Source: a virus
DNA length: 39,158 nucleotides
Reading direction: 5' to 3' (one strand)
IMG/VR virus record: IMGVR_UViG_3300046373_000033
Coordinates: 1-39,158 of that record
Shown: positions 10,088 to 18,408 of the stretch, piece by piece
Layout: the number at the start of each line of letters is the position of its first letter
Numbering within the stretch: position 1 is the stretch's first letter
Notes under the pieces: generated by a model
Told to the model about the DNA's origin: nothing
Databases searched by the model: none
Seen by the model: only the letters and a program-made list of their open reading frames with translations
Position numbers and translations under genes: made by a program

Positions 10088-10295
10088 CTTTTCCCCCATG
10101 TTCACACTCACTGCACCCTGGATCACTCTGCCACGCCGTGTATCGACAGTTCGTTGAATTGACGTGCTGTACCTCCACATCGTTGCGCACCCTGATAGGC
10201 GTCATGTACTGGTCAAACGCTTCCTTGTAGCCGTCCTGGGCGATGTAGGAGGGCTTGAAGGGTGGGCGGTTGTGGCATTGGTATTCGCGAGTCAT
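10080..10295 (-). CDS. Hypothetical protein (71 aa)
   Basis: ATGA-coupled to the upstream gene and overlaps the downstream start by 8 nt. Confidence 0.5.
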   Translation of the reverse strand: MTREYQCHNRPPFKPSYIAQDGYKEAFDQYMTPIRVRNDVEVQHVNSTNCRYTAWQSDPGCSECEHGGKDE

Positions 10296-16138: not shown

Positions 16139-16900
16139 TTAGCTTTTGAATGCTGCCTGCATCGTTGCGAGCCATTCCTCAGACCATTCCAATGCCATCT
16201 TGGAAAATTGATTGGTCTCTGGCGTGTCGCCCCGATTGATACTCAGGAAAAAACGCTCTACTGGCCGACTGGAATTAGGCTTGAGTGAGCCAAGATCGCC
16301 GATTGCAGAATTACGCGCAGTAGCAATTGTCCCGACGAGGCATGAGCATTCGCCTTCGTAAGTAGAACCATCAACGCGACCAGCTTTTAGCGCCGCAATA
16401 AGAGCAGGCACTTCACGTGGAGCAGATGAAAGAACTGCCCAAAGGTCGTCGCGTACTGGCGTCAGGTCGGCACCGCTCAGGTAGGCGTCGCTCAGGTCGG
16501 CACCGCGCAGGTTGGCACCGCTCAGGTAGGCGTCGCTCAGGTCGGCACCGCGCAGGTTGGCACCGCTCAGGTTGGCACCGCTCAGGTAGGCGTAGCGCAG
16601 GTCGGCACCGCGCAGGTTGGCACCGCGCAGGTTGGCACCGCGCAGGTCGGCACCGCGCAGGTCGGCACCGCGCAGGTCGGCACCGCTCAGGTAGGCGTCG
16701 CTCAGGTCGGCACCGCGCAGGTTGGCACCGCTCAGGTAGGCGTCGCTCAGGTCGGCATTGCTCAGGTAGGCACCGCTCAGGTAGGTCGAAGCTTTGATTG
16801 CCATGTACAGCGTGATTGCCAGGGTATTCCCCTCTGCTTCGTGTGCAAAAAGTACGCTGCCATTCCAATGGTGCTTGATTTCGATGCGTGTCATTTCCAT
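16139..16900 (-). CDS. Pentapeptide-repeat protein with a non-repeat C-terminal domain. First gene of the PL-like operon.
   Basis: About 21-22 consecutive A(D/N)L(S/R)xx pentads ([20 protein letters not shown]...), then ...[30 protein letters not shown].... ATG 16894 (AAGGGG 6 nt upstream) is an alternative to 16900. Confidence 0.9.
16454..16783. repeat. Coding tandem repeat, 15-nt unit with 30-nt and ~90-nt higher-order copies
   Basis: The 30-mer GGCACCGCTCAGGTAGGCGTCGCTCAGGTC occurs exactly at 16469, 16514, 16679 and 16724. GGCACCGCGCAGGT(T/C) units lie between the copies. Confidence 0.9.
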
Positions 16901-16952
16901 CCCCTTGTTTGCTGGTTCGTTTAGGTTTGCTTCTGTGCTGCTGATGTGAGTA

Positions 16953-16980
16953 ACTATACACGAACGGATAGATAAAACAA
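16953..16980 (-). promoter_or_regulatory. PL-like early-left promoter (minus strand: TTGTTT-16-TATAGT) with an operator-like module shared with PR
   Basis: The reverse complement of 16952-16990 aligns with 18365-18403 at 34 of 39 positions, with -35 and -10 in register. Confidence 0.55.
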
Positions 16981-17033
16981 TACGCGAATGAATAAAAATT
17001 CAAAATAGTTTTAACGAGGTGAAAACGCAGACG

Positions 17034-17059
17034 AAAAAAAGCCAGCTCGAAAGCTGGCT
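17034..17059 (-). terminator. Intrinsic terminator for minus-strand transcripts
   Basis: The minus strand reads AGCCAGC-TTTCGA-GCTGGCT followed by TTTTTTT. Confidence 0.75.
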
Positions 17060-17068
17060 AGTGGGGAG

Positions 17069-17097
17069 TTGTAAACCTGAGGGAGTGGGCGTAAACT
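17069..17097 (+). promoter_or_regulatory. Candidate sigma70 promoter TTGTAA-17-TAAACT, reading rightward into the 17123 ORF
   Basis: Hexamers at 17069-17074 and 17092-17097. AGGAGG at 17113-17118 and ATG at 17123 follow. Confidence 0.35.
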
Positions 17098-17120
17098 TGC
17101 TGGATGTTAATTAGGAGGGG

Positions 17121-17417
17121 TTATGGAAGCTGATCAAAATGCTGTTGAAGTTTTGCCATCCATTCATCCACTGTTAGACAAGCACTTTCATAGGTTGCCA
17201 CCTGAAATTCTGTTGGGCTCTCTGAAGGAACCATCCCTATCAAAGCTTCGCGAGTATTTTGCAGTGCCTGGAGCAGCTGAGTGGGCTCTAGAACAGCAGG
17301 AATATGCGCGGATGAGGATGAAGCAATTTGGATTGATCTAAGCAGAGACATAATCACTTCCCGCTGCCCGACCTCTCGCCCGATTCCCTGGGCTATATCG
17401 ATCTGTGTAATTTCCAT
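17121..17417 (-). CDS. Hypothetical protein (98 aa), rex-position cargo. Coding strand uncertain.
   Basis: GGAG lies 5 nt before ATG 17417. The minus-strand terminator at 17034-17059 follows. Confidence 0.45.
   Translation of the reverse strand: MEITQIDIAQGIGREVGQREVIMSLLRSIQIASSSSAHIPAVLEPTQLLQALQNTREALIGMVPSESPTEFQVATYESACLTVDEWMAKLQQHFDQLP
17123..17341 (+). CDS. Hypothetical protein (72 aa), fully antisense to 17121..17417. Coding strand uncertain.
   Basis: Strong SD AGGAGG 4 nt before ATG 17123. A candidate promoter lies upstream and a plus-strand terminator downstream (17435-17466). Confidence 0.35.
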   Translation: MEADQNAVEVLPSIHPLLDKHFHRLPPEILLGSLKEPSLSKLREYFAVPGAAEWALEQQEYARMRMKQFGLI

Positions 17418-17434
17418 TCAATCTCCGTAGTGTT

Positions 17435-17466
17435 TGCCCGCGCTAACATAGGCGGGCATTTTTATT
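17435..17466 (+). terminator. Intrinsic terminator oriented for plus-strand transcripts
   Basis: TGCCCGC (17435-17441) pairs with GCGGGCA (17452-17458), followed by TTTTTATTTATT. There is no T-run on the other strand. Confidence 0.6.
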
Positions 17467-17656
17467 TATTGTCGATGGGCCATTTTTTGAATGCAAATAC
17501 CCAAAGAAAAACTAAGTTGAGCAATGGCAGCAGCATTAAAAGCACAAGCCACCTTGAATGGCCGGTTCGGCCAAGCAGTTTTACTAGCGGAATCCCCAAA
17601 GCCAAGAATCCTAAAATGGCAGGAAAGAAAACAGCAATTAATTCAGAGTCATTCAT
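17462..17656 (-). CDS. Small two-helix membrane protein (64 aa), rex-position cargo
   Basis: LIAVFFPAILGFLALGIPLV and WLVLLMLLPLLNLVFLWVFAF. The surrounding DNA is very AT-rich (one 60-nt line counted at 15 G+C). Confidence 0.6.
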   Translation of the reverse strand: MNDSELIAVFFPAILGFLALGIPLVKLLGRTGHSRWLVLLMLLPLLNLVFLWVFAFKKWPIDNK

Positions 17657-17890
17657 CCTTATAAGTTCCTTTTAATAAATATTTCAAATTTGCACTTTTA
17701 ACTGTTCGTCAACTCTGGTAATGTTTCAATCTGCCTGTGTTTACATACAGCGCCGAAAATTTGAAAGGATCGCCGTGCAAGAGAATTCAGTTCCAGTACC
17801 AGCAGATCCCCAGTTCTTGCGTATGTACGCATCCTTCTTGTTAATGACAAAAGAAGAACGAGACCATCAGGAGGATTCTTTTGCCGAAAT

Positions 17891-17919
17891 AGCAAAAGGG
17901 CGCTCCATTAAAAGCGCCC
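17891..17919 (-). terminator. Intrinsic terminator directly after the repressor gene
   Basis: The minus strand reads GGGCGCT-TTTAATGG-AGCGCCC followed by TTTTGCTATTT. Confidence 0.7.
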
Positions 17920-17930
17920 CATCGTTAAAG

Positions 17931-18320
17931 CTAGTTGTTAGTTGCAAGACCGTTTGATTCCGCTCGACGCGCACCCGCTTTCGCAGACTTCATCAAAACA
18001 TTCCTGATGGCTGGGCTGCATTCAAGGTAGGCGGTAACAAGCTCCAATATCTCATCGCCGCTAACTTCCGGCGATTCCAGTCCCTCCACCAGGCTAATTC
18101 CGCGCTCCGGTGGAATTCCCTCGTTCAGCCAATCAAAAGAAACATTCAGTGCGCCTGCCAGCTTTCTTAAGGTGGCAGTCTCCGGGCCTTTCTTTCCATC
18201 CCCTCCGCTCAAGATGCGGCTAATGGTTGCCTGCGGAACGCCGGAAGCACGGGCGAGCGCACTTTGCGAAGTGATCTTCGCGTCTTTCATTGCCTTGTCT
18301 AAACGATCTCCAATGTTCAT
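17931..18320 (-). CDS. XRE-family HTH repressor (CI-like), without a recognisable S24 peptidase domain
   Basis: Track ORF 17931..18380. Start placed at ATG 18320: MNIGDRLDKAMKDAKITSQSALARASGVPQATISRILSG.... Divergent from the cro-like gene. Confidence 0.8.
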   Translation of the reverse strand: MNIGDRLDKAMKDAKITSQSALARASGVPQATISRILSGGDGKKGPETATLRKLAGALNVSFDWLNEGIPPERGISLVEGLESPEVSGDEILELVTAYLECSPAIRNVLMKSAKAGARRAESNGLATNN

Positions 18321-18355: not shown

Positions 18356-18374
18356 AAACACATCCATTTGCGTA

Positions 18375-18402
18375 TTGCATTGTCTATCCATTCGTGTATA
18401 GT
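18375..18402 (+). promoter_or_regulatory. PR-like promoter TTGCAT-16-TATAGT, 6 nt upstream of the cro-like ATG
   Basis: TTGCAT at 18375-18380, TATAGT at 18397-18402, ATG at 18409. Confidence 0.6.
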
Positions 18403-18408
18403 TTGGAG

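Follow-up and report, generated by a model that had tools for sequence, protein, structure and literature searches.

Here we describe two open reading frames (ORFs) that overlap on opposite strands of a phage genome, the smaller of which, passed over by gene callers, appears to be the better-supported coding frame of the two. The genome is IMG/VR virus record IMGVR_UViG_3300046373_000033; the window that we analysed is the whole of this record (positions 1-39,158, with direct terminal repeats and 51.6 % guanine plus cytosine (GC)) and is a complete temperate phage of 39 kb. Between the repressor gene and the PL promoter, a 98-amino-acid (98-aa) ORF on the minus strand (17121-17417) is the one that gene callers choose, and an unannotated 72-aa ORF on the plus strand (17123-17341) lies wholly within it. 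Codon statistics and expression signals make it reasonably likely that the locus is a moron-type cassette in which an autonomous antisense gene, encoding the 72-aa protein, is nested in a leftward transcription unit.

The plus-strand ORF is preceded and followed by signals in its own orientation. A promoter-like site, TTGTAA-17-TAAACT (17069-17097, plus strand), agrees with the promoter consensus at 8 of 12 positions, which is also the agreement shown by the PL and PR promoters of the phage. It is the sole plus-strand site with at least 8 of 12 matches in 16900-17125; such sites occur at 1.85 per kb per strand, so that about 0.1 would be expected in the 60-nt gap. The Shine-Dalgarno (SD) sequence AGGAGG (17113-17118, plus strand) stands 4 nt upstream of ATG 17123. 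This hexamer has 12 sites in the genome, and the same AGGAGG-N4-ATG arrangement precedes the 218-aa exonuclease gene. The region around the plus start folds worse than 167-197 of 200 shuffled sequences. Behind the ORF lies a plus-oriented intrinsic terminator (17435-17470) with a calculated energy of -15.2 kcal/mol, in which a hairpin with a 10-bp bulged stem (17435-17458) is followed, on the plus side only, by the T-run TTTTTATTTATT. A strict scan of the genome, which required a single hairpin of -12 kcal/mol or lower with a T-run directly behind it, returned 6 clean terminators, compared with a mean of 1.5 in dinucleotide shuffles. The one at 17436-17457 (plus strand) is alone among the six in opposing the local gene direction, the other five pointing with their neighbours. 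On the minus-strand RNA the same hairpin falls between the stop codon of a 64-aa gene and the SD of the 98-aa ORF, and has no U-run behind it.

The minus-strand ORF has signals as well. Its ATG at 17417 is the first codon behind an in-frame TGA, and GGAG (17423-17426, minus strand) stands 5 nt upstream of it; such a four-base SD is weak evidence alone, and the minus start region folds slightly better than shuffled sequences. The ORF begins 44 nt downstream of the gene for a 64-aa two-helix membrane protein (17462-17656, minus strand), which is the upstream cistron of the leftward unit. The intrinsic terminator of this unit (17033-17059, minus strand) lies 61 nt beyond the 98-aa stop codon (17123-17121) and just upstream of PL; it has an 8-bp GC-rich stem (17040-17059), an energy of -13.1 kcal/mol (z -4.7) and a T-run on the minus side only. 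The hairpin of this terminator and its A-tract (25-26 nt; 22-mer) recur identically in 8 other, otherwise dissimilar IMG/VR phage contigs and may represent a reused terminator module. The two ORFs interlock at TTATGG (17121-17126), where the plus start meets the minus stop, and their frames are so related that first codon positions stand opposite each other. Both are open and each has its own translation signals. The initial annotation of this locus had reported the antisense pair, the two SD sequences, the promoter-like site and a bracketing by terminators of opposite polarity; every one of these features is present at the positions it gave.

ORF length by itself is ordinary here, and the combination of signals is not. 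Over the real genes of the phage, antisense stop codons in the frame relation of the pair have a density of 0.05 per codon, which gives a 98-codon gene a 7 % chance of containing 77 or more consecutive open codons in antisense. Coding potential was scored with a codon model trained on 23 confident genes of the phage, which assigned the right frame to 65 of 68 held-out windows of 297 nt. True genes score -3.99 +/- 0.08 in this model. Stop-free shadows of the phage's own genes in the frame relation of the pair (74 windows) score -4.27 +/- 0.05 with a maximum of -4.157, and simulated stop-free shadows (n = 4025) score -4.27 +/- 0.066 with a maximum of -4.049. The 72-aa plus ORF scores -4.031, at the 31st percentile of true genes and at a level reached by none of the 4025 simulated open shadows. 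The overlapping part of the minus ORF scores -4.099 (9th percentile of true genes), and the 26 codons at its N terminus, which lie beyond the overlap, score -4.044, which favours coding by a likelihood ratio of 2.2. The gap between plus and minus scores is 0.068; the smallest gap in the stop-free gene/shadow windows of the phage is 0.102. By these measures neither ORF seems to resemble an ordinary shadow.

Conditional resampling, in which one protein sequence was held fixed and its synonymous codons were redrawn by phage usage, separates the two frames further. With the minus protein fixed, the plus frame was open in 7.5 % of draws and 0.22 % of those scored as high as the observed ORF (joint p 1.7e-4); when the residue order was shuffled as well, the observed plus score was met in 0 of 30,000 draws. 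With the plus protein fixed, the minus frame was open in 19.6 % of draws and 7.7 % of those scored as high (joint p 1.5 %, or 0.3 % with the residue order shuffled). Permuting the plus ORF's own codons retained the minus score and left the minus frame open in 3.7 % of permutations, so that only the openness of the minus frame needs explaining. As a by-product of the minus ORF, the plus ORF is very difficult to account for (p about 2e-4); for the minus ORF as a plus-ORF shadow, the difficulty is moderate (p 0.3-1.5 % over the overlap). A full candidate gene asks more of the 98-aa ORF: another 26 open codons, a start directly behind a stop codon, and GGAG-N5-ATG. We would put its status as a gene at about even and regard the 72-aa ORF as the better-supported coding frame.

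The surroundings of the pair are those of an accessory locus. By comparison with related phages, it occupies a variable cargo slot between the terminator of the cI-type repressor gene and the PL promoter/operator module, in agreement with the initial annotation, which had placed it between the repressor and PL. The XRE-type (cI-type) repressor gene runs from 18380 or 18320 to 17931 on the minus strand, and the terminator behind it (17897-17920, minus strand, -15.0 kcal/mol) lies near the right limit of the slot. The left limit is the PL module (16952-16993, minus strand), which over its 42 nt shows 86 % complementarity to the PR module (18362-18403); a rightward PRM-like promoter was sought beside the PL module and not found. 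Relatives of the repressor carry the PL/PR module twice, once before cI and once 0.35-4 kb behind it, and the 0.35-4 kb of cargo in between differs from phage to phage and is unrelated. Judged by sequence, the slot of these relatives holds a superinfection-immunity-like membrane protein, a nuclease, a MazF-like protein, a large ATPase, a ribbon-helix-helix protein or nearly nothing. In the phage studied here, the leftward (minus-strand) order is repressor, terminator, AT-rich spacer, 64-aa gene, hairpin, 98-aa ORF, terminator, PL module and a pentapeptide-repeat gene.

Morons are genes that sit as inserts between those of a phage and bring a promoter and a terminator of their own; rexAB of lambda, at the position that corresponds to this slot, and sieB of P22 sit beside the repressor. 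The locus lies between conserved modules and its content differs among close relatives, as is typical of a moron. Its own signals are less uniform: the terminators are clear, the promoters match only 8 of 12 positions, and the GC content of the cargo insert is 41-47 % compared with 51.6 % for the genome, the cassette with the ORF pair being at 47 %.

A near-identical phage in marine metagenome runs, contigs of which we compared with the region, delimits the cassette. One marine contig spans 17021-17119 with six substitutions and two compensating indels, all within 17076-17086; in this relative the spacer of the promoter-like site alone differs, whose length of 17 nt is preserved together with the two hexamers and AGGAGG. 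A second contig, of 684 nt, agrees with 17435-17773 but for 2 differences; its remaining 345 bases, which lie leftward of 17435, are less than 80 % like the window. The segment that is unmatched between these kept flanks, 17120-17434 (315 bp), is exactly the ORF pair, ending on one side at the plus ORF's SD, also the first base past the minus stop, and on the other at the foot of the hairpin. On this comparison 17120-17434 is a replaceable cassette. The comparison is indecisive between the frames, because its limits agree equally closely with the minus ORF plus its SD and with the plus start.

In the arrangement that we favour, the AT-rich cargo insert (about 17034-17700) would be a moron occupying the variable slot that separates the repressor gene from PL, and the 72-aa ORF would be a true gene equipped with a promoter-like site, AGGAGG, an open start region and a terminator of its own. 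The plus unit would lie backwards inside a leftward unit that begins with the 64-aa gene and continues as far as the terminator at 17040-17059, and leftward polymerases would cross the whole plus gene and its promoter. Overlap would be unavoidable if both were transcribed, because the leftward unit ends only at 17040-17059. The predicted plus RNA, of about 360 nt, would be wholly complementary to the leftward RNA and would extend over the 98-aa ORF's SD and start. Judging by what is generally known of convergent transcription, the two directions would be expected to interfere through colliding polymerases, an occluded promoter and duplexes between the RNAs, strong expression of one reducing the other. 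The initial annotation had left the choice between a shadow ORF and convergent overlapping transcripts; the statistics favour the convergent option in so far as the plus unit is an unlikely by-product, and we infer from the anatomy that both strands would be transcribed and the 72-aa ORF translated. Translation of the 98-aa ORF from the leftward RNA has, in our estimate, a little less than an even chance. Judged by position, the slot and its contents in relatives would suggest a role for the cassette in lysogen fitness or phage exclusion.

The closest competitor is a special case of this arrangement, true dual coding, in which the 72-aa and 98-aa proteins would both be functional, for example as an antagonistic pair whose layout makes their expression mutually exclusive. 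The 315-bp cassette would then code on both strands and could yield an either/or pair, for instance an exclusion factor with its antidote, in a swappable module beside the phage switch. Both frames lie within the range of real genes and differ in score by less than any gene/shadow window of the phage, and the joint p for the minus ORF as a shadow is low over the overlap. The minus ORF also stays open beyond the overlap with a likelihood ratio above one for coding, starts right behind a stop codon with GGAG in place, and together with its SD fits the segment unmatched in the marine relative to a few bases. Verified antisense protein pairs are rare, however, and given the plus codons the minus score is expected, which leaves only its openness to explain; GGAG alone is weak, the minus start region is slightly more folded than its shuffles, and the ESM Atlas model of the 98-aa protein has a pLDDT of 0.52 and no match by features. 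We regard dual coding as a tentative possibility, on the unlikely side.

It is improbable that the 98-aa ORF is the sole gene, with the 72-aa ORF its shadow, the plus-strand signals coincidental and the hairpin an intercistronic RNA stabiliser on the minus mRNA. Such a reading draws on the greater length of the minus ORF, its orientation with its neighbours, its short distance from the 64-aa gene, the terminator behind it and its selection by gene callers. Shadow ORFs of 70-130 aa are moreover common in this genome, and the A-rich end of the upstream gene accounts in part for the T-run of the plus terminator. What it would have to accommodate is a plus frame that arises as a by-product with p about 1.7e-4 or less, and AGGAGG-N4-ATG, the unstructured start region and the orientation of the terminator come on top of that value.

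Equally doubtful is an arrangement in which the 98-aa gene would be controlled by a non-coding plus-strand antisense RNA over its SD and start, the 72-aa ORF being incidental. The plus terminator and promoter-like site are present, an RNA spanning 17104-17466 would cover the minus SD and ATG, and functional long antisense RNAs of prophages are known (STnc6030, PMC7067206). A non-coding RNA, however, needs neither AGGAGG-N4-ATG nor an open 72-codon frame with gene-like codon usage.

The 64-aa hydrophobic protein could also be imagined as the toxin of a type I toxin-antitoxin system, with the plus RNA as its 3'-overlapping antisense antitoxin. Type I pairs with 3' overlap are found in prophages (txpA/RatA, bsrG/SR4), and the neighbour is indeed a small two-helix membrane protein convergent with the plus RNA. 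Here, however, the plus RNA would overlap the 64-aa ORF by 5-9 nt only, which is its terminator tail and falls short of pairing over a functional stretch; a homologue of the 64-aa protein in another phage has no such partner, and toxin-antitoxin and defence models gave no match, all of which makes this reading very improbable. The earlier suggestion of a toxin/antitoxin-like pair or an exclusion gene likewise gains nothing from similarity to toxin-antitoxin or defence families.

Searches for relatives of the two ORFs were extensive. No homologue of either was found among the phages of INPHARED (as DNA or protein), in a 5.8-billion protein index (covering proteins close in length to either ORF and, in the case of the 98-aa ORF, longer ones too) or among PDB sequences, and back-translated patterns of the ORFs found none in IMG/VR, GTDB genomes or JGI metagenomes. 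For the 72-aa ORF, an exhaustive phmmer search of 1.84 billion representatives returned no homologue. When 401 genomes from the family to which a Herminiimonas genome belongs were searched in six frames, the best per-genome E value was 2e-4, from short noise alignments. Neither ORF has a significant match in Pfam, PHROGs, PADLOC or NCBIfam, which gives no membership in rexAB, sieB or defence families, and Rfam gave no match. A plus-strand family could escape protein databases, because those contain called genes only; the DNA and six-frame searches, which do not depend on called genes, were likewise blank. In an exact-sequence look-up, the 64-aa, 98-aa and 149-aa proteins occur on this contig alone. 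Flank searches for other cassettes found the hairpin pattern neither in IMG/VR nor in JGI metagenomes, and the left-flank pattern was not found in IMG/VR.

The predicted products of 72 and 98 aa are small, acidic and without membrane segments. AlphaFold2 (AF2), run without an alignment, models the 98-aa protein as four helices (pLDDT 68.1, pTM 0.56) and the 72-aa protein as short helices with one long C-terminal helix (pLDDT 64.5); Foldseek matched neither model to a known fold in the PDB. In the ESM Atlas the 72-aa sequence is protein-like, with a recognition of 2621. A toxin of the HNH/EndoVII fold (AHH, SHH, GHH2) was considered for the 72-aa ORF on an ESM value of 0.90, which is borderline and comes from small proteins labelled only in part as AHH/SHH. 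It was set aside as unconfirmed by profile: for PF14412 nothing appeared in the genome at E values up to 10, and the Pfam scan was empty.

Several points weigh against the nested 72-aa gene that we favour. The reading is based wholly on statistics from one sequence, and since neither ORF has a detectable homologue in the databases searched, no measure of selection on the frames comes from that side. The codon model derives from 23 genes of a single 39-kb genome, from whose composition (51.6 % GC) that of the cassette (47 %) departs, and there is overlap among the 74 calibration windows. At 17069-17097 the agreement with the promoter consensus is weak (8 of 12), and the T-run behind the plus hairpin is in part dictated by the last codons of the 64-aa ORF (Asn-Lys-stop). 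For both proteins the AF2 models are mediocre and without a fold match. A strong SD before an antisense ORF can also arise by coincidence, as is seen at 10247 (plus strand), where AGGAGG lies opposite the early-left operon and a GTG 9 nt further on opens a 99-codon ORF. This ORF is either a further antisense candidate or an example of the chance background.

The neighbouring genes of the slot were also compared. The 64-aa protein matches PHROG 16232 at an E value of 2.8e-4 and, weakly, DUF5684. Its sole homologue found is a protein of 63 aa in another phage (L017, 2461-2652), 53 % identical over 43 aligned C-terminal residues and ending in the common motif WVFAFKKWPID. There (L017, 1272-2652) it adjoins an apparent two-gene toxin-antitoxin pair, and the antisense cassette is missing. 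A 26-nt inverted repeat with 73 % complementarity links 17312-17337, at the end of the plus ORF, with 17637-17662, around the start of the 64-aa gene; in the leftward RNA, the region of that start could thereby pair with a stretch in the ORF pair. As a meaningful pairing it was judged to be at chance level. The pentapeptide-repeat tract at 16404-16807 has thousands of contigs 80-95 % like it in marine and wastewater runs; these make up most of what the runs with a small share of the region contain and are uninformative on this phage.

At the other end of the slot, a gene convergent with the repressor gene occupies 17775-17957 (plus strand), with a probable start at GTG 17775 behind AAGGA. It overlaps the 3' end of cI, and in the window its coding sequence includes the hairpin of the cI terminator. 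Counterparts occur in four related phages (L006 5346-5552, L003 5346-5546, L009 5379-5585 and L004 5355-5585, all on the minus strand). The copies are 60-78 aa long and 21-33 % identical, with the common pattern L..MF..M..EE....GR..RP.L.LV, and the gene has no match in Pfam, PADLOC or NCBIfam. Genes on the plus strand thus do occur in this slot, because the gene convergent with cI is kept in relatives.

The window was found almost entirely in one soil metagenome run, which is probably its source, and deposited phages include no close relative of it. Among the sequencing runs listed for the phage, none is recorded as RNA. The nearest relatives of its cI-type repressor, at 48-72 % identity, sit in prophages of Duganella, Herminiimonas and Oxalicibacterium, and the host is therefore probably an Oxalobacteraceae-type betaproteobacterium.

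The locus bears on how small phage genes are annotated. Gene finders keep one ORF per locus; here they keep the 98-aa ORF, and the statistics favour the one they discard. If this is borne out, small accessory genes of prophages would be routinely missed or mis-assigned, in this case in a slot that in prophages is home to genes for exclusion and defence. Should both frames be in use, the cassette would offer a compact and experimentally tractable case of antisense dual coding, in which a stop codon introduced in one frame can be silent in the other. With its signals it measures about 450 bp, short enough for synthesis and for testing in a laboratory host.

Known systems share parts of this layout. 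Like the lambdoid morons, the locus is an AT-rich insert with a flanking terminator between the repressor gene and PL, variable in content among relatives that share cI and PL. Unlike them, it would hold one unit nested backwards in another, and it has no sequence relation to rexA, rexB or sieB. The noncontiguous operon is a closer parallel: taiEcA is a defence gene set backwards in the late operon of phi80 (PMC11364771), and antisense-encoded morons or accessory genes with their own promoter are described in prophages (PMC7067206). In these noncontiguous operons or excludons, as in the locus described here, a gene runs against the surrounding unit, whose transcript is antisense to it. Here, however, a short cargo operon surrounds the gene in place of a lytic operon, the antisense stretch itself contains a long ORF with an SD, and the arrangement is known from sequence alone. 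In Tab/anti-Tab a defence gene with its own promoter is also placed backwards, and a search of that report by terms turned up no antisense overlap of the two genes (PMC10884400).

Embedded antisense overlapping genes (asOLGs) have been described in E. coli O157:H7 and Pseudomonas aeruginosa (PMC9927249, PMC8850804; reviewed in PMC7457138). The present pair resembles them in that one ORF is fully embedded antisense to the other and each has promoter-like, SD and terminator elements. Those asOLGs combine a conserved, annotated mother gene with a young embedded ORF, and expression has been measured, whereas here both ORFs are without homologues, the embedded one appears to be the better supported and expression is predicted. 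STnc6030, a long antisense RNA of the Salmonella prophage BTP1 that excludes phage (PMC7067206), is a lysogen-type antisense transcript of the kind predicted here, and the plus RNA could likewise act by pairing. It differs in having no ORF longer than 60 aa and in targeting structural genes, whereas the plus RNA would carry a strong SD and a gene-like 72-codon ORF. What would set the locus apart from all of these arrangements is that both of its ORFs stand without relatives, that the unannotated, embedded ORF is the better supported, and that the pair appears to be exchanged as one cassette.

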